Origin: a phage
DNA: 49,223 nucleotides
Reading direction: 5' to 3' (one strand)
Sequence record: NC_103567.1
Position numbers and translations under genes: made by a program. Each line of letters begins with the position of its first letter. The first letter of the stretch is position 1. Under the pieces are notes generated by a model. The model did no database searches. It was not told the DNA's origin and was given only the letters and a program-made list of their open reading frames with translations. This document shows positions 1 to 49,223 of the stretch, in pieces.

Positions 1-137
1 AGATTTTGTGATTGAAATTGATTTGATTTGATTAGATTTGAGTAGTGAGAGAGCAGAAATAATCACACCTTGCCGATCAGAGAAAACTTTTCCCGCAAAA
101 CATCACTCCAGGCTCCGCGCTGTTATCTTCCGTTCAT

Positions 138-235
138 GGGTGTTCACAAATCTACCCGGCGTAGTTCTCCGACGGTTCTATGTGTTAGCCACACAAAAAG
201 AACAAAATAAAACTCTATATAATAATAATTAAAAC
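138..235 (+). repeat. copy A of a duplicated ~100-bp control-region element (GGTGTTCACAA...CCGGCGTAG...ACAAAAAGAACAAA...CTATATAATA)
   Basis: Aligns by eye with 28578-28675 at roughly 75 percent identity, followed in both places by TATATA-rich then GT-rich sequence. Confidence 0.7.
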
Positions 236-522
236 AGTAAGTTATCTATATATATGTATTTATTTGTTTCTATACTGTTTCTAATGTTCCATATGGTTAG
301 TGGTGGGTGATATATTGTTGATGGTGGTATTTGGTTAATATTTAGCCTATTGCGCCTGGTCTAGTGGTGGATTGAGAAAAATATATTTATATATAGGAAT
401 CCGCGAAAATTCATGAACGCATGAACAGCCAAAGAACGCGTTTTCAATTTCAAGTAAAACATTAACTTACGCTGAAAATTTGTTCCACTATAGGTATGGA
501 ACGTAAGCACACAAAAAACTAC

Positions 523-550
523 TTGACGAGAACAAATGGCGGCGATAATA
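523..550 (+). promoter_or_regulatory. sigma70-like early promoter (TTGACG-N16-ATAATA); -10 sits in the loop of inverted repeat GGCGGCG / GCCGCC
   Basis: Near-consensus -35 and -10 with proper spacing about 40 bp upstream of the ATG at 588. Confidence 0.6.
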
Positions 551-587
551 TGCCGCCACGAACTAACCAACAGGAGGATAACCAATC

Positions 588-1040
588 ATGGCAACTACCA
601 AAGAGTTTTGCGACAGCTTGCGTGAACTGGCGAAGAAGTTAGCAAGCGGAGAGCTTGATAATTACATCATTGCCGATGCTCTTATCGAGGACAATCTCGA
701 CGAGCAAGACAGGAAGAAGGTTAACGCCTCATACATTCGCACGATCATGAATCGCGTCCCTGACGTGAAGGAGATCGGAACGGTTTCAATTACTCGCACT
801 GATCCGGTTGAGGAAGCGCCAGGGTTTAAGGTGGCAATCAACCGCGAGGCAAAGCGACAGGTATTCACAAAAAATGATATTCCGGCACTGGAAAAGAGGA
901 TCGGTGAGCGAATCGCCAAGCGACTGCTAAACACAATGCCAAATATCACGGATCTGGAAGGTGAACAACTCCAGGGCGCGGCAATCGGAATTAAGCGTTA
1001 TCAGGATCTGATTAAGTCAATGGTTGAGCAAGGGGAATAA
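588..1040 (+). CDS. hypothetical early protein, first gene of the rightward early block
   Basis: 150-aa ORF; AGGAGG about 11 nt upstream of ATG; directly downstream of the promoter at 523-550. Confidence 0.75.
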   Translation: MATTKEFCDSLRELAKKLASGELDNYIIADALIEDNLDEQDRKKVNASYIRTIMNRVPDVKEIGTVSITRTDPVEEAPGFKVAINREAKRQVFTKNDIPALEKRIGERIAKRLLNTMPNITDLEGEQLQGAAIGIKRYQDLIKSMVEQGE

Positions 1041-1042
1041 TC

Positions 1043-1276
1043 ATGTTTTGTCCGATCCGTTTTAATGGTGTAGACCTGCTGAAAGAATCCAGGATGTGTA
1101 CAACTGCAATTGTTAATCGCCTATATCTAAGAAGTGGCGGCAACATAGTAAAGCTGGAATATCGTTCCGGTCGCATAATCCGCACAGACACCGGAAGATG
1201 GATAGAAACAAATGAATTGCTATGGCACAACGCAAAAGGCCGCTTATACTTCAAAACGTTTGAGGATATCCGCTAA
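1043..1276 (+). CDS. hypothetical protein
   Basis: 77-aa ORF starting 3 nt after the previous stop; stop overlaps the next start (TAATG). Confidence 0.55.
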   Translation: MFCPIRFNGVDLLKESRMCTTAIVNRLYLRSGGNIVKLEYRSGRIIRTDTGRWIETNELLWHNAKGRLYFKTFEDIR

Positions 1277-1389
1277 TGAATACGAAATATATTGAGTTAT
1301 GTTTATGCTTGCTTATCCTTGCGATTGCGGCAACTTTCGGATCGCTTGCATTCCTGGTTTTTGCTGACGCTATCGGGAGACTTCAATGA
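1276..1389 (+). CDS. small hydrophobic single-pass membrane peptide (37 aa), first of three translationally coupled peptides
   Basis: Hand translation MNTKYIELCLCLLILAIAATFGSLAFLVFADAIGRLQ; start overlaps upstream stop; not in ORF track because under 60 aa. Confidence 0.5.
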   Translation: MNTKYIELCLCLLILAIAATFGSLAFLVFADAIGRLQ

Positions 1390-1493
1390 AAACATTCGCA
1401 TTTGTCGCTGCAATGTGGTGCGTTGCAATCGGTCATCCTGGCGTGGCGCTTGTTGTTCTTGGTTTGATATTGTTGGGGGCGTTTGATGAATAA
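1386..1493 (+). CDS. small hydrophobic membrane peptide (about 34 aa), second of three
   Basis: Hand translation MKTFAFVAAMWCVAIGHPGVALVVLGLILLGAFDE; ATGA start/stop overlap with the previous peptide. Confidence 0.5.
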   Translation: MKTFAFVAAMWCVAIGHPGVALVVLGLILLGAFDE

Positions 1494-1599
1494 GAAACTT
1501 TTAGATCATGCCGTGGTGTTCTTTATCGCTGCTGCTGGATTTTCGCTGTTGTCAATTGCTTTTTCAATCCTTGCTTTTGCCGTGTCAATGCTGAAATGA
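1486..1599 (+). CDS. small hydrophobic membrane peptide (about 37 aa), third of three
   Basis: Hand translation MNKKLLDHAVVFFIAAAGFSLLSIAFSILAFAVSMLK; start overlaps previous stop. Confidence 0.5.
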   Translation: MNKKLLDHAVVFFIAAAGFSLLSIAFSILAFAVSMLK

Positions 1600-1620
1600 C
1601 GGATTACATCCTGATTGGCA

Positions 1621-1641
1621 AATAGCACTTTTTGTTAAAAC
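1621..1641 (+). promoter_or_regulatory. 21-bp early-promoter-associated motif, class I (AATAGCACTTTTTGTTAAAAC)
   Basis: Matches the dispersed motif; TGG-CATAAT extended -10-like element about 22 bp downstream; gene follows. Confidence 0.6.
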
Positions 1642-1696
1642 TCGATTGGGGTAGTTTGGCATAATTACCACATCGAAACGAAACGAGGAAAACACA

Positions 1697-1855
1697 ATGA
1701 CTACCTTAATCACCTGGGAACACGAAACAAGCCAGCCAGTAACCCGCGAGTTTGAAACTCTTAGCCAGGCTTATCTGCTTGCTGCTAACGGTGGTTATTA
1801 CAAGGCGCAAGTTGTTGATGAAATGGGAGTGATTGTTTATGAGTTCCATGCATAA
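1697..1855 (+). CDS. hypothetical small protein (about 52 aa)
   Basis: ATG preceded by GAGGA; hand translation MTTLITWEHETSQPVTREFETLSQAYLLAANGGYYKAQVVDEMGVIVYEFHA; coordinates approximate. Confidence 0.4.
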   Translation: MTTLITWEHETSQPVTREFETLSQAYLLAANGGYYKAQVVDEMGVIVYEFHA

Positions 1856-2120
1856 TTTCCGCAGCTACACGCAGGAAGTGGATTTTGATGGGATCAAGTT
1901 ACCAATTCCTAACATATACCGCTATATCACTCGTGATGAATACGGATTTATAAACGCCTGGAGAGATAAGCCCAAAAAGGTTGGCAATGAATACGGCGAC
2001 GGCTCAGAGATGCCGATCACGTTAGGTCATCAAACTGGCGAGAATGTAGCGGCTGTAATGCGCAAATATCGCCGCAGCCGCACAAACTCATTAATTTCTA
2101 TCTTTGGCATACCGGAGTAA
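1839..2120 (+). CDS. hypothetical protein
   Basis: ORF track 1833-2120; first ATG at 1839 has GGAGTG about 8 nt upstream. Confidence 0.6.
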   Translation: MSSMHNFRSYTQEVDFDGIKLPIPNIYRYITRDEYGFINAWRDKPKKVGNEYGDGSEMPITLGHQTGENVAAVMRKYRRSRTNSLISIFGIPE

Positions 2121-2125
2121 TAAAA

Positions 2126-2383
2126 ATGTTTGAACTGAAACGCGTAACTGTTGAGATCCTGAATGATGGCTCTTACGATGGAATGAAACACTTAACCTTC
2201 CCGATCCGCATTGAGAATTGCATTGATTACGGTATTGAAGTTGGCATGGTTGACGTTCCTCTTGATGCACTTATCGCGGCTGGCTATGACAAAGAGAAAG
2301 GCCAATGTGCTGATATACCGGATAGCTATGAAAGCGACACACATTTCCCGTTCACCTATGGCGAATGCCGGATTGTTGATTGA
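2126..2383 (+). CDS. hypothetical protein
   Basis: 85-aa ORF immediately after the previous gene, same strand. Confidence 0.6.
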   Translation: MFELKRVTVEILNDGSYDGMKHLTFPIRIENCIDYGIEVGMVDVPLDALIAAGYDKEKGQCADIPDSYESDTHFPFTYGECRIVD

Positions 2384-2455
2384 GGTGATAAAGTGAGCAG
2401 TTGGCACAATGAGCACGTAATGCAATTCTACCGACACAGAATAAAAAAAATGATC

Positions 2456-2476
2456 AATAGCACGAATTGCTAAAAC
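2456..2476 (+). promoter_or_regulatory. 21-bp motif, class II (AATAGCACGAATTGCTAAAAC)
   Basis: Motif followed by inverted repeat GGGCTT...AAGCCC with TATAGT in its loop; gene at 2533. Confidence 0.6.
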
Positions 2477-2532
2477 AGAATTTTGGGCTTGCGGTATAGT
2501 AAGCCCATACCAAACAACGAGAGGATCACAAA

Positions 2533-2859
2533 ATGGAATTAGCACGCAACGCGGTTTATGGATTACACCTTAAAGGCGGCAAAGGCTCAACTTATGCGCA
2601 CCTGTTTCATGTTAACGAGCGCGGTCAAATTGATATTGCAATGTTTGTTGACCAAAGGGTTAAGAAAGGCGGTGAGGGTGATTGTGATACATTCCGACCG
2701 GATTTGGTTGAATACGATCACACATACAGTCATGATCACTGGATTGGTCACGGTCGCAAGTTTGTAATGGTTAATAGCCACGTTACCGACACAAGCAAAA
2801 TCACTGCATCGCAGTATAAGCGCATGGCTCGCAAGGTTATGAAGTTAGAAGCGCAATAG
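2533..2859 (+). CDS. hypothetical protein
   Basis: 108-aa ORF downstream of a motif copy; GAGAGGA-like RBS. Confidence 0.6.
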   Translation: MELARNAVYGLHLKGGKGSTYAHLFHVNERGQIDIAMFVDQRVKKGGEGDCDTFRPDLVEYDHTYSHDHWIGHGRKFVMVNSHVTDTSKITASQYKRMARKVMKLEAQ

Positions 2860-2931
2860 CACAAAATGTTAAGCGGTCATGTGTGCTGATGGGTATAATG
2901 ACCGCATCAACCAACCAAAGGAGAAGTAAAA

Positions 2932-3039
2932 ATGTCTAAAGAGTCTATCAAGCAGTTTCTGAAATACGGTTCTATGATTGTGCTCGCTACCGTTGTGCTG
3001 GCTGGCATCGCGTATAGCATTATTGAGTTTGCGGGGTAA
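2932..3039 (+). CDS. small membrane peptide (35 aa)
   Basis: AAGGAGAAG RBS, ATG, hand translation MSKESIKQFLKYGSMIVLATVVLAGIAYSIIEFAG; TATAAT-containing promoter-like sequence about 40 bp upstream. Confidence 0.5.
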   Translation: MSKESIKQFLKYGSMIVLATVVLAGIAYSIIEFAG

Positions 3040-3042
3040 TTG

Positions 3043-3606
3043 ATGTTTACGATCAACTTGTGGGGAAGGGATTATGTTAATCCATATGTTGCGACAAAAC
3101 AGCGTTTCGTTATTTTCGACCTAGACGGCACATTGTCAAATGGTGAGCACCGCTTGCACCTGTTGCCAACTGTTGATTTGCATCTTACTGAAAGCTGGAG
3201 TGAGTTTAATCGCGCCGCAAAGGATGATTCACCATTCAGCAATAACATTTCCGTGTGCAACGCCATGTTTGACGCCGGATACCTGGTTATCATCCTAACA
3301 GGACGTAGTGATGAAGTTGAAGCAGAAACGCGAGCCTGGTTAGCTGAAAACGGCGTTTCTTTCGATTGGCTAATTATGCGCCGCGCGGAGGACAACCGGA
3401 AAGATACAGTAATCAAAGAGGAAGTTTTACGGACTATCGGACTAGATCGCATTGTCGCATGTTGGGATGACTCGCCAAACGTTATTGCACACCTTCGCGG
3501 CCTGGGCTTGACTGTTTACCAGGTAATTGACTACGGCGAGCAGTTACACGATCACTTAAAATCTCACGGCGTGGAGGAATTGAGCGATGACAGCAAAGCT
3601 AATTGA
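3043..3606 (+). CDS. HAD-superfamily phosphatase (nucleotidase or polynucleotide 3-phosphatase-like)
   Basis: N-terminal FVIFDLDGTLS matches HAD motif I (DxDGT); 187 aa. Confidence 0.7.
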   Translation: MFTINLWGRDYVNPYVATKQRFVIFDLDGTLSNGEHRLHLLPTVDLHLTESWSEFNRAAKDDSPFSNNISVCNAMFDAGYLVIILTGRSDEVEAETRAWLAENGVSFDWLIMRRAEDNRKDTVIKEEVLRTIGLDRIVACWDDSPNVIAHLRGLGLTVYQVIDYGEQLHDHLKSHGVEELSDDSKAN

Positions 3607-14809: not shown

Positions 14810-14858
14810 CGTGCTAACACAAAAAACACTTGAACGTTTAACAAAAAATGCTATATTA

Positions 14859-28921: not shown

Positions 28922-28949
28922 TTGACTACATGAAACATTCACATATAAT
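28922..28949 (+). promoter_or_regulatory. strong sigma70-like early promoter (TTGACT-N16-TATAAT)
   Basis: Near-consensus hexamers about 30 bp upstream of the exonuclease gene. Confidence 0.65.
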
Positions 28950-28977
28950 GCAGACATACCAACGAGAGGATGAATAA

Positions 28978-35116: not shown

Positions 35117-35126
35117 GCCGGAATTT

Positions 35127-35735
35127 TTAGCAATCAGTGCTATCGACGGAAATCACAACGCGTTTCTTCTGATTGGCTTCCTTTGCTTTGCGCCGTTCTT
35201 CTTTCGCCTTGTCTCGTTCAGCCTTGCGCCGCGCTTTCTCCTTCTCGCGTTCTTCTGGACTCATAGACCGCAACGGATCGTAAGGACGCACAAATCCTCT
35301 TGCTTCCGCTTCCTCTTTGGTTACAAATCGCATGAGCTTTCTGTTGCTGCAACGATTCTCTAATGGCTTGCCGTTGTTGTCAAAGCGCAAATCTGGACGG
35401 CAATATGAAGCGCGGAAGCCGTTAAAACCTTTGCGGCGGTAATCCTTTTGGATCAGTTCAGCGCCTTTAGCTGAAATCATGCCGCGCTCTTTCCATCCCC
35501 ACACTGTTTTAAGGTTAACGCCAATCTCACGCGCCAACGCAGCACAGCCGCCATAAGCGCTAACCACCTCATCAAGCCTCGCTTTTAATCCTGCCCTTAC
35601 TTCTTCCTTTAGTACCAGATAACCGCTAACAGGTGCGCGGCGCTTCCGGTCTTTACCACGCCTTACGCCGTTGTTACCATTGATTGTGCGTTTGTCGATT
35701 TCGCCCGTTGAGGCCGCAATTTTGATTTCGCTCAT
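35127..35735 (-). CDS. DNA-binding protein with predicted helix-turn-helix and highly basic C-terminal tail
   Basis: 202 aa; GCAALAREIGVNLKTVWGWKERG looks like an HTH; C-terminus KEKARRKAERDKAKEERRKAKEANQKK. Confidence 0.6.
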   Translation of the reverse strand: MSEIKIAASTGEIDKRTINGNNGVRRGKDRKRRAPVSGYLVLKEEVRAGLKARLDEVVSAYGGCAALAREIGVNLKTVWGWKERGMISAKGAELIQKDYRRKGFNGFRASYCRPDLRFDNNGKPLENRCSNRKLMRFVTKEEAEARGFVRPYDPLRSMSPEEREKEKARRKAERDKAKEERRKAKEANQKKRVVISVDSTDC

Positions 35736-35767: not shown

Positions 35768-35823
35768 TTGATTAAGTTTGTGTATGATATGCCGCAAATG
35801 GCATTTAGTCAAAAGGATAAAAA

Positions 35824-40073: not shown

Positions 40074-41189
40074 ATGAGTTTAAAAAAGATTACCGACGAG
40101 CAATTGATCGCTGAACGTGAGGCGGGTTTAAAACTGCGTGAGATTGCGGAAAAATACGGAATGAGCTTGCGCCAGGTTGAGCACCGCCACAGCAAATTAG
40201 CAAAGCGTGGCGAGATCTCAACTATCGGATCACCTGGCTTTGCGGTAATTGGCGAGTCAAAGTTAGTTGATAAAAACGGCAATACTAAACTAACCTGGAT
40301 TAAGACGCACAAAGATAAAGACCAGTTAGAGGCAATAATGCAAGCGGCTATGGCTGCATTTTCTGACGAGTTGCCACGCCTGGAACCACAGCCGGAAAAG
40401 ATTACTGACTATTCGAAAACCCTTGCGCTATATCCGATCTTTGATATTCATATTGGTGCAATGGCTCATAAGCATGAAAGCGGAGAGAATTACGACACAG
40501 CAACGGCAGAAAAGATCATGAATGAATTCTTTGATTATGCCGTCGATAAAGCACCGAATAGCGAAAAGGCTGTATTGCTGATTGGTGGTGATATGATTCA
40601 CAGCGACGGCCTGGAGGCTGTAACACCTGCAAGCGGTCACGTTTTGGATCAGGATTCGCGATATGCGAAACTTGTTTATGTTGCCATTCGAGCCACGCGC
40701 AGAGCAGTAAGCAGAATGCTGGAAAAACATAAAGAGGTTGAATTGCAGATCATTGAAGGTAATCACGACCAATCAGGAATGATCTGGCTACGTGCTGCAA
40801 TGGCGGCGGCGTATGAGAATGAGCCACGCGTAAAGGTTGATGTTTCTCCGCGCGTCGTGCATCACACTCAATATGGTAAAACTTTCCTGGCTTATCATCA
40901 TGGTCACACTGTACGCAAGCCAGAAACGCTTTTAATGATGTGTGCAGCGGATTGGCGGGAAGATTTCGGAAACTCCAATTCAATGTATGCGCATGTAGGG
41001 CATTGGCATCACCAGACTGTTACAGAAACGAGCCTTGGCATTGTTGAGGTGCATAGCACTATGGCAGCAAAAGACGCTTACGCCGCGCGTGGTGGCTGGC
41101 GTTCACGTCGCAGGGCGGCGGTAATTATTTATGATAAGGAATATGGCGAAATAGGGCGGTTTATGTTTTACCCTGAAATGATTGCTTAA
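40074..41189 (+). CDS. HTH domain fused to a calcineurin-like metallophosphoesterase
   Basis: 371 aa; N-terminal LKLREIAEKYGMSLRQVEHRH; then DIH, GGDMIHSD, EGNHDQ, HHGH, GHWHH in the order of metallophosphoesterase motifs; AGAGGA RBS. Confidence 0.65.
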   Translation: MSLKKITDEQLIAEREAGLKLREIAEKYGMSLRQVEHRHSKLAKRGEISTIGSPGFAVIGESKLVDKNGNTKLTWIKTHKDKDQLEAIMQAAMAAFSDELPRLEPQPEKITDYSKTLALYPIFDIHIGAMAHKHESGENYDTATAEKIMNEFFDYAVDKAPNSEKAVLLIGGDMIHSDGLEAVTPASGHVLDQDSRYAKLVYVAIRATRRAVSRMLEKHKEVELQIIEGNHDQSGMIWLRAAMAAAYENEPRVKVDVSPRVVHHTQYGKTFLAYHHGHTVRKPETLLMMCAADWREDFGNSNSMYAHVGHWHHQTVTETSLGIVEVHSTMAAKDAYAARGGWRSRRRAAVIIYDKEYGEIGRFMFYPEMIA

Positions 41190-41525: not shown

Positions 41526-42016
41526 TGACAATCAAGAAAGGTATAGCCGCCACCGTCACAGGGGCGGCTTTAATGTTGGCATCGCCTTTGATTGAAGAAA
41601 TTGAGGGCGTAAAGTATAAGCCTTACAAGGATATTGCTGGAATCTGGACGGTATGCCACGGCATTACCGGAAAGGATGTGATTCTTGGAAAGGAATATAC
41701 CAGGCGAGAATGTGACGCGCTATTAGCAAAACACATGAAAGTAGCGGCTGACGCTGTTGATAAGGCGGTTAAGGTTGAAATTCCTTTATCAATGCGAGCG
41801 GCTCTATACTCATTCACTTTTAATGCTGGTACTGGCGCGTTTCGTAAGTCAACCATGCTGAAAAAGATCAACAATGGTGATCTATGGGGCGGTTGTGGTG
41901 AGCTATGGAACTGGACATATTACCGGAACCCTAAAACTGGTAAAAAGGAAAAATCAAGAGGATTGAAGAACCGCCGCGCCGTCGAATATAAATATTGCGT
42001 AAGGGATCTTAAATGA
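41525..42016 (+). CDS. SAR endolysin (lysozyme)
   Basis: 163 aa; N-terminal weakly hydrophobic [18 protein letters not shown] then [24 protein letters not shown], resembling phage P21-type SAR lysozymes. Confidence 0.8.
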
Positions 42017-42402
42017 AAAAGAAATTAATGGCTGTTTTGATGTGCGTTATGCTTTCCGGTTGTTCTGCGTCGAGCTTGTTACCTGGCCTGATTGGTAGCA
42101 AGCCCGATATAACAGCACAGGCAGGATCTGAAAATGTGAAACAAACTGTTGGTGTAACTGCAAAGCATGATACATCAAGCAAGCAGGAAACCACATTTAA
42201 AGAATCGGCTGTTGGAAAGGTTGACACGTCGAATAAAAAACAGGTGAGCACTTCAAGCATTAAGGCAGATAACATCACAGCGGAAAGAATAGAGATCCGA
42301 AATAATGATGGTCTTAATGTTCCGGCAATCGCAATGGGTATATTGATGTTTATTGCGGGTATGCTGGCAGGGTGGGCACTTAAACGTAACAAGGCGGCAT
42401 AA
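42013..42402 (+). CDS. unimolecular spanin
   Basis: 129 aa; N-terminal lipoprotein signal [17 protein letters not shown] and C-terminal helix [18 protein letters not shown], the architecture described for the T1 unimolecular spanin. Confidence 0.7.
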
Positions 42403-49084: not shown

Positions 49085-49105
49085 GTTTTAACAAAAAGTG
49101 CTATT
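49085..49105 (-). promoter_or_regulatory. 21-bp motif, class I (reverse complement)
   Basis: GTTTTAACAAAAAGTGCTATT on the plus strand; outermost leftward promoter candidate. Confidence 0.6.
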
Positions 49106-49223
49106 CATGCAGTATCAGCAAAATTACCAACGTTCATCTTAACGAACAATCAGTTCGACGTATCGACCAGGCTCATGATCCTGTTATGTGATCGTTATAT
49201 GATCAGATGATGATTGATGTGTG

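Follow-up and report, generated by a model that had tools for sequence, protein, structure and literature searches.

The first gene and its expression signals

We analyzed an open reading frame (ORF) of 150 amino acids at positions 588–1040 (+ strand) of the phage sequence record NC_103567.1. The whole stretch of 49,223 nucleotides (nt) is referred to here as the window. In a megablast search with bases 1–3000, the window matched Citrobacter phage Stevie at 94.4% identity and 100% coverage, Sazh at 97.6% identity, and TLS and many other T1-like phages. It is collinear with the Sazh record and begins with AGATTT, which is the pac site according to the TLS paper (PMC11447400). From these relatives, the collinearity with Sazh and the AGATTT start, the window is a complete T1-like phage genome of the Drexlerviridae (Tlsvirus). 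In this family, 849 phage records are matched by the major capsid protein. The left end of the window is a non-coding region of approximately 590 bp and, after the permuted ends are joined, the early genes diverge from this region.

The ORF starts with ATG at 588, ends with TAA at 1038–1040 and encodes a 16.9 kDa protein with an isoelectric point (pI) of 5.4 that belongs to the Pfam family DUF7174. Its homologues include TLS gp01, Sazh gp01 and Stevie gp58. The original prediction for this locus described the ORF as the first gene after the control region, with an AGGAGG ribosome-binding site and a near-consensus sigma70 promoter. The ORF is indeed present and the AGGAGG Shine-Dalgarno sequence lies at 572–577 (+), 10 nt before the ATG. 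Its first position also holds in the window, TLS, Sazh, Stevie and T1, and essentially in Rogue1, where two tiny annotated ORFs alone precede the DUF7174 gene. SorkZaugg is an exception, with a 95-amino-acid ORF upstream of the DUF7174 gene within one transcription unit.

The predicted promoter at 513–551 (+) is of the sigma70 type and activator-independent. It consists of an A-tract (513–518) in the place of a proximal UP element, TTGACG (523–528), a 17-nt spacer and TAATAT (546–551), which ends 36 nt before the ATG. The match to consensus is 5/6 for the –35 and 4/6 for the –10 hexamer, or 9/12 overall. Matches of this quality within 1–3000 number five compared to 7.5 expected in shuffled sequence, so that a consensus scan does no better than chance and the promoter call rests on conservation. 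A TTGAC(A/G)-type –35 element, a 16–17-nt spacer and a –10 element are found upstream of the homologue or positional equivalent in TLS, SECphi27, A143, A13a, A134, Rogue1, 2004V, SorkZaugg and Sushi. These promoters are mostly preceded by an A-rich tract, even where the surrounding DNA cannot be aligned. The exception is T1, which has TTGACA upstream of its first gene and no convincing –10 element at standard spacing. Thus, there is a promoter at the predicted place that is conserved in relatives, but "near-consensus" was a generous description, especially of the –10 hexamer. Since this is an ordinary sigma70 –35/–10 promoter, the gene should be transcribable by unmodified host RNA polymerase upon DNA entry.

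Transcription is predicted to start at about A558, based on the spacing from the –10 hexamer and on leader similarity (see below). The leader (558–640) is predicted to be unstructured and is less folded than shuffled sequence (z +1.65). An inverted repeat, TGGCGGC-N8-GCCGCCA, lies over the –10 hexamer at 538–559 and could be an operator or a hairpin. Its significance is doubtful because it is imperfect in TLS (GCCTCC), which weakens the case for a conserved operator.

The DUF7174 family and its predicted fold

The ORF protein matches DUF7174 (PF23796) with an E value of 4.5e-51 and 173 bits against a cut-off of 27. The match is full length, with residues 1–149 aligned to profile positions 1–152 of 153. 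It also falls in phrog_4841 (PHROG 4841; E 1.5e-46). The earlier statement that the protein has no recognizable motifs thus needs a qualification as to family and holds as to function, since neither DUF7174 nor phrog_4841 has a known function that could be assigned to it. It had also been argued that a clear housekeeping assignment from a profile search would count against a takeover-type role for this gene. The profile search returned DUF7174 and phrog_4841 and no housekeeping assignment.

Other searches with this protein were uninformative. A Pfam scan to E 10 returned DUF7174 alone, and NCBIfam and PADLOC gave only noise, including a PADLOC defence-protein match at E 0.0066 and 13 bits. Sequence searches of the PDB with the single protein and with the profile gave nothing below E 1. 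There was no Rfam match within 1–3000, and a literature search found nothing on DUF7174.

A search of 5.8 billion proteins gave 19 matches (34 with a profile) and an exhaustive search of 1.8 billion representatives gave 73. All of the matched proteins are approximately 150–190 amino acids long; for those with a source given, it is a T1-like phage record or a contig of approximately 50 kb. There was no informative name, fusion or extra domain among them. By tblastn, the window-type protein is found in 319 phage records, the T1-type branch adds 59 records, and the Rogue1/Rtp-type branch is found in 176 that partly overlap the 319. The shortfall compared to the 849 capsid-defined records is chiefly due to Klebsiella Webervirus. 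The homologues in TLS, Sazh, Stevie, T1, Rogue1/Rtp and SECphi27 have the first-gene position in common, and this position is fixed in all four subfamilies examined. The first gene of T1, p77, lies within the 2.8-kb terminal repeat and has a sub-threshold match to DUF7174 over the whole profile. In the Webervirus Sushi, a Klebsiella phage, the first gene is gp54 (181 amino acids; 41570–42115 of Sushi), which has a TTGACA-17-TATTAT promoter at the equivalent position. Homology of gp54 to DUF7174 was not detectable with hhalign (probability 2%). This gene is a homologue that has diverged extremely or else an unrelated gene in its place.

To obtain structural models, AlphaFold was run twice, with 13 and 28 aligned sequences, and the results agree. 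The mean predicted local distance difference test score (pLDDT) is 77–79, with values of 82–92 over residues 1–70. The models contain a helix at 4–20, a strand at 25–29, a helix at 30–36, a short helix, a helix at 47–55, another short helix, strands at 64–70 and 79–86, and two long C-terminal helices at 97–116 and 126–147. In both models the six main elements of the N-terminal part follow the H1-S1-H2-H3-S2-S3 order of a winged helix. From this we predict that residues 1–86 form a winged-helix-like domain, followed by a helical hairpin domain (97–147). For the model, no significant neighbour was found among solved structures, and its BFVD neighbours are all uncharacterized members of the family.

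In an alignment of 57 sequences with 28% mean identity, the most conserved stretch, SYIRTxMNRVPEVKxxG, corresponds to helix 3 and the start of the wing. Within it, G64 is invariant, and Y49, R51 and R56 each show conservation of at least 90%. Helix 47–55 (SYIRTIMNR) is the putative recognition helix of a protein predicted to bind nucleic acid through helix 3 and the wing. The C-terminal hairpin is the portion that tblastn can still align between subfamilies. We also considered a DNA mimic of the Ocr type and rejected it; the pI is 5.4 and the charge is balanced (26 acidic and 24 basic residues).

Marbox-type promoters of the early and middle operons

The direct repeats of T1 were reportedly described already in 2004. 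In genome papers published between 2015 and 2024, its 16–21 direct repeats are still given as unexplained; the Stevie and TLS papers describe these repeats, state that their role is unknown and suggest stoperators, enhancer sites or UP elements (PMC4319613, PMC11447400). The Stevie record annotates several of them as 22-bp "repeat_region" features located 56–59 nt upstream of start codons and oriented with the gene. The window has 10 copies of AAATAGCACTTTTTGTTAAAAC at no more than one mismatch compared to 0.01 expected, and 19 copies of the looser TLS repeat consensus.

This repeat of 21–22 bp fits the marbox consensus of the Escherichia coli regulators MarA, SoxS and Rob, AYnGCACnnWnnRYYAAAY (PMC3709825), at every specified position but the last. 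We counted exact matches to the first 18 consensus positions (AYnGCACnnWnnRYYAAA) in nine genomes and found 119 in total, with 17 in the window, 16 in SECphi27, 15 each in T1 and Rogue1, 13 in A143, 11 each in A134, 2004V and Sushi, and 10 in A13a. Shuffled genomes gave 0.0–0.15 matches each (0.15 for the window). In the window the matches start at 1622, 2457, 3972, 5104, 6491, 30034, 35746, 38204 and 39528 on the + strand and at 35126, 42700, 44864, 45544, 46957, 47909, 48728 and 49087 on the – strand. Near-matches occur at 14836 (–) and 33992 (+).

A –10 hexamer follows 12–24 nt downstream of the box at 113 of the 119 sites, at exactly 18 nt in 87 and at 17 nt in 15. Aligned, these promoters have the box, an 18-nt spacer, a –10 hexamer (CATAAT, TATAGT or similar), approximately 6 nt, CA(T/A)CGAAACGAAAC, GGAG and the ATG. 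Position –14 is a conserved G, and the inferred start is an A. The box spans approximately –50 to –31 from this start, centred near –40.5, and hence replaces the –35 element. In class II promoters of the mar/sox/rob regulon, by definition, the box is in forward orientation and overlaps the –35 region (PMC6900184); the soxbox of micF has its centre at –41.5 (PMC9638938). The promoters neighbouring the DUF7174 gene share the consensus, the forward orientation and the –35 overlap. From these features, the phage boxes have the class II layout, and they keep it across the four subfamilies and Webervirus. They have additional fixed positions (A3, T11 and T12) and embed the dyad TAGCA-N5-TGCTA. Two other interpretations of the box were rejected. 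It is not a sigma54 promoter, as the GG-to-GC distance is 10 rather than 12 and a –10 hexamer is conserved 18 nt downstream, and its TTGnTA is not a displaced sigma70 –35 element, which would require a spacer of approximately 22 nt.

The start and leader sequence, CA(T/A)CGAAACGAAAC followed by GGAG (for instance at 1672–1690), begins approximately 6 nt past the –10 hexamer and is conserved across subfamilies. The leader of the DUF7174 gene itself, ACGAACTAACCAACAGGAGG (558–577), resembles it. This leader may be a binding site, or an element that acts in the initial transcribed sequence or enhances translation.

Nearly all other early and middle operons on both arms have their –35 region replaced by the 20-bp box. 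A scan for strong –35/–10 pairs found two further clear intergenic promoters in the window, both box-independent and of the sigma70 type: TTGACT-16-TATAAT at 28922–28977 (+), before the RecE-like exonuclease gene, and TTGACT-17-TATCAT at 35812–35736 (–), before the gene for a T1p23-like Cro/YdaS-type regulator. The latter is back to back with the box promoter of the helicase gene (35746). This agrees with the TLS authors, who counted three sigma70-like intergenic promoters (PMC11447400).

The rightward sigma70-type unit is short in every genome and consists of the DUF7174 gene and zero to four small ORFs. In the window the rest of this putative immediate-early unit (1043–1599, +) comprises a 77-amino-acid ORF (1043–1276) and three ORFs of 35–38 amino acids (1276–1389, 1386–1493 and 1483–1599), the homologues of which are annotated as transmembrane proteins in the Sazh record. 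There is no box and no strong promoter inside 588–1620. The unit is closed by a box promoter that starts at 1622 in the window, 1450 in T1, 12498 in SECphi27 and 1186 in Rogue1. In the window this promoter (1622–1665, +) has the box ATAGCACTTTTTGTTAAAAC (1622–1641), an 18-nt spacer and CATAAT (1660–1665). On the leftward arm a box promoter comes first; its box lies at 49087–49106 (–) and, given the circular permutation of the genome, faces the same control region. The rightward arm thus has a single early unit that does not depend on a box, and DUF7174 is the one product of this unit that is conserved.

No AraC/MarA-type protein was found in the phage genomes, which argues against a conventional phage-encoded reader of the box. 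A phmmer search with MarA and SoxS sequences entered by hand gave nothing below E 0.4 among all ORFs of seven phage genomes. The Pfam scan of the ORF protein to E 10 gave neither HTH_18 nor HTH_AraC, and comparison of the DUF7174 profile with MarA, again entered by hand, gave an hhalign probability of 0.1%. Our literature search found no link of T1-like phages or Drexlerviridae to marboxes, Rob or SoxS, although the 2004 T1 genome paper may hold one.

These results bear on an explanation in which DUF7174 is a cofactor acting on host proteins. It could free or activate Rob or stabilize MarA/SoxS or, like T4 AsiA and Thermus phage gp39, it could prevent sigma70 region 4 from recognizing the –35 element. 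In either case RNA polymerase would leave the –35-dependent promoters, both those of the host and the immediate-early one, for the marbox class II promoters. The difference between promoter types, the immediate-early position of the gene, the match of the boxes to a host-factor consensus and the failure to find a phage AraC-type protein all favour this explanation. Unstressed cells contain plenty of Rob, most of it inactive, and little MarA or SoxS, so that a trigger would be of benefit to a lytic phage. Sigma70 region 4 is prevented from contacting the –35 element at class II SoxS promoters (PMC9638938); a –35 blocker would for this reason favour class II promoters. However, all of this support is circumstantial. 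A partner of proteins as strongly conserved as Rob, sigma70 and the beta flap is not expected to diverge as fast as DUF7174 does. There is also no Pfam similarity to the AsiA or MotA families. We think that such a cofactor is very unlikely.

A 26-codon ORF initiated by GTG, MSSWHNEHVMQFYRHRIKKMINSTNC (2394–2474, +), is annotated as an Stp-like peptide in Stevie and TLS. Its 3' end overlaps the marbox at 2457–2476, and a PNK-phosphatase gene lies at 3040–3606. A T1p16-like metallophosphatase ("DNA repair exonuclease"; 40074–41189, +) has a weak N-terminal HTH_23 match (E 0.005, residues 14–46), and its Sushi homologue is annotated with a sigma70 region 4-like domain. This metallophosphatase may also bind DNA, but its own expression is from a box promoter.

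Divergence, cassette exchange and the control region

We compared protein identities between the window and T1, Rogue1, 2004V, SECphi27 and A13a. By tblastn and alignment, DUF7174 is approximately 20–40% identical, compared to mostly 50–80% for other shared proteins, and its gene is the fastest-diverging syntenic gene among those examined. The window and SorkZaugg are 93–95% identical at 1–120 and from 1385 onward, with 121–1384 wholly replaced. This segment (721–1868 in SorkZaugg) comprises the control region, the DUF7174 gene and the next two genes. Within it, only the stretch encoding helix 3 (714–779) and the region of the ribosome-binding site still align. Fast divergence and cassette exchange fit an effector in an arms race and fit equally well a DNA-binding protein whose sites evolve along with it.

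The first of these corresponds to the suggestion in the original prediction that such a first gene may mediate host shut-off or anti-defence. As an effector, DUF7174 would attach right after injection to a protein of the host, such as a nuclease, a component of restriction or defence, or a part of the host machinery, and would have no role in phage transcription. We regard this as a possible though doubtful explanation. T7 gp0.3 and T3 SAMase are precedents for first genes of this kind. Expression as the first gene from a host-type promoter, the rate of evolution, the cassette swap between phages that are nearly identical on both flanks, and the mildly acidic protein are all consistent with it. 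In addition, the T1 homologue has a weak, sub-threshold match to AcrF2 (E 0.0049, 17.6 bits against a cut-off of 27), and counter-defence functions are known among the nearby early genes (the Stp-like peptide and PNK). However, anti-defence genes are usually patchy, whereas this gene has a fixed position in all four subfamilies. No known anti-defence family was matched in Pfam, with no dedicated anti-defence library having been searched, and the PADLOC match is noise. Nucleic-acid binding is the more typical role of a winged-helix-like fold that has a conserved helix. Furthermore, the exchanged cassette includes the non-coding control region, which would be superfluous for an effector that binds a host protein.

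Most of the control region, from 121 onward, lies inside the exchanged segment. Its central part (200–510) has AT-rich blocks at approximately 200–280 and 375–400, repeats of the T(A/G)GTGGTGG type at 298, 320 and 362 with an inverted copy at 486, and an inverted repeat, GTTCCA-N10-TGGAAC, at 483–506. In the inspected genomes the intergenic DNA contains an AT-rich block together with short repeats, which vary from lineage to lineage. An origin-like layout was noted at 200–510 of the window, 1–538 of T1 and 1–560 of Rogue1, with a "tatatata" AT block, G/T-rich GGTGG repeats and lineage-specific repeats. The repeats include ACGATTAAC in T1, with three copies in tandem (P 9e-9), TGTAGGAA in Rogue1 (P 2e-10), a motif that also occurs upstream of the 2004V gene, ATAACA in A13a (P 1e-5) and three copies of TAGTGG in the window (P 3e-6), all P values being uncorrected for multiple tests. 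After correction, several genomes, among them SECphi27, A134 and 2004V, show marginal enrichment or none. With this uneven support, the control region and gene together resemble an initiator-plus-iteron or a regulator-plus-operator module.

If the module were of the first type, DUF7174 would bind an origin or control region. Its variable N-terminal winged helix would recognize the lineage-specific repeats beside the AT-rich block in the 0.6–0.7-kb intergenic region and its C-terminal hairpin, which is better conserved, would recruit a phage partner that is itself conserved, for example helicase, primase or terminase, in the manner of lambda O or plasmid RepE, with autoregulation as a secondary role. 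Here, the marginal repeat enrichment is a weakness. The window and SorkZaugg have the same putative recognition helix but differing upstream DNA, and physical linkage alone could account for the co-transfer of gene and control region. The repeats could also be bound by terminase or host proteins. No membership in a Rep family was found by sequence, and none that was significant by structure. DNA-negative T1 mutants lie on the helicase/primase side of the genome, which also counts against an origin binder. Overall, we judge this role to be unlikely.

A possible immediate-early regulator

The reading that we favour, at a rough probability of 30%, is that DUF7174 is an immediate-early DNA-binding regulator of the winged-helix type that acts on phage DNA and starts the programme of the marbox promoters. 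A role in the phage's own transcription is favoured because DUF7174 is the sole conserved product of the sole box-independent early unit on its arm, and a regulatory role is suggested because its promoter type differs from that of the other early operons. DUF7174 would be made first, from its plain sigma70 promoter by host RNA polymerase. It may be a dimeric protein in which the N-terminal winged helix contacts DNA via helix 47–55 and the C-terminal hairpin serves in dimerization or binding of a partner. By acting at box promoters or at the control-region repeats, it would switch transcription from the immediate-early unit to the box-dependent operons, and it may also shut off its own promoter. 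Its target could be the box itself, it could help Rob/MarA/SoxS or RNA polymerase to use the box, or it could regulate its own control region alone.

Several points weigh against this reading. The putative recognition helix varies between lineages, being SYIRTIMNR in the window, TLS and SorkZaugg, SSFITPIVSR in T1, SYIYNTVSR in Rogue1 and 2004V, and TYIRNCINQ in a branch of 170-amino-acid proteins. The exposed changes include R51T and T52P in T1, R51Y in Rogue1 and R56Q in the 170-amino-acid branch. The box is nearly invariant while the exposed residues of helix 3 vary, which argues against DUF7174 as a sequence-specific reader of the box, and we have down-weighted that version. Host Rob, MarA and SoxS are conserved in enterobacteria and would explain the box more simply, without a phage factor. 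The T1p23-like protein (35127–35735, –), of the Cro/YdaS helix-turn-helix type, is likewise under a box-independent promoter. Webervirus, represented by Sushi, has boxes and only a positional analogue of DUF7174 without demonstrable homology. The mildly acidic pI of the protein is also not in its favour. Finally, the classical T1 amber mutants are not known to map to the region of the first gene.

A stronger version of the regulator reading is that DUF7174 is the phage switch that makes host RNA polymerase use consensus marbox class II promoters for almost the whole early and middle programme. This could occur by non-AraC occupancy of the marbox via the TAGCA-N5-TGCTA dyad, by activation or liberation of Rob, or by alteration of sigma70 region 4. 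We consider this stronger version improbable.

T1 is a member of the classic T-phage set and its transcription programme is essentially undescribed. Our literature search found no transcriptome of a T1-like infection, and no T1-like phage library is listed in the outlines of two phage transposon-sequencing (Tn-seq) preprints. The gene alone is moderately interesting; the promoter architecture turns a first gene of unknown function into a specific hypothesis. Consensus marboxes at the class II position and a first gene that is the sole conserved product of its box-independent unit together provide a concrete model of a temporal cascade that could be tested cheaply, and the phage family concerned is very common (approximately 850 records). 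If Rob/MarA/SoxS drive the box promoters, phage growth would be coupled to the antibiotic and oxidative-stress regulon of the host. The gene tolC is a member of the mar/sox/rob regulon and TolC is the receptor for TLS, and control by the host regulon would bear on phage therapy combined with antibiotics and on TolC-receptor phages such as TLS. If DUF7174 is the switch, it would be a new type of early regulator and, if it switches transcription onto the marbox promoters, this would be a new kind of transcriptional takeover that explains the direct repeats of T1. Should it prove to be an anti-defence factor, it would be a priority target on account of being first everywhere.

Comparison with known systems

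The closest known relatives of the ORF at 588–1040 are the other members of DUF7174/PHROG 4841 (TLS gp01, Sazh gp01, Stevie gp58, Rtp rtp1, Rogue1 gp03 and, distantly, T1 p77). These have the same size, match over their full length and are likewise first genes adjoining the pac site and control region; the family provides a name rather than a function. PadR/LmrR-type and other small winged-helix regulators are among the known systems closest to this protein. Iteron-binding initiators such as RepE/pi and lambda O differ in that the ORF protein has one winged-helix domain rather than two and that the repeats here are short and weakly supported. There is also no Rep family signature (Rep_3/RepE or lambda O) in the ORF protein.

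The early-to-middle switch of T4 by MotA and AsiA is alike in that a product of a plain sigma70 early promoter precedes later promoters that keep the –10 element and have a box at –35. It differs in that the ORF protein has no sequence or fold similarity to these proteins, the Pfam scan to E 10 having given DUF7174 only, and in that the phage box is a marbox near –40.5, whereas the MotA box is at –30. The promoters themselves are closest to E. coli class II promoters such as micF, with the same 20-bp box in forward orientation over the –35 region and 18 nt to the –10 hexamer. Compared to host marboxes, the phage boxes are far nearer to the consensus and to each other, and there are 10–17 of them per genome of 45–50 kb.
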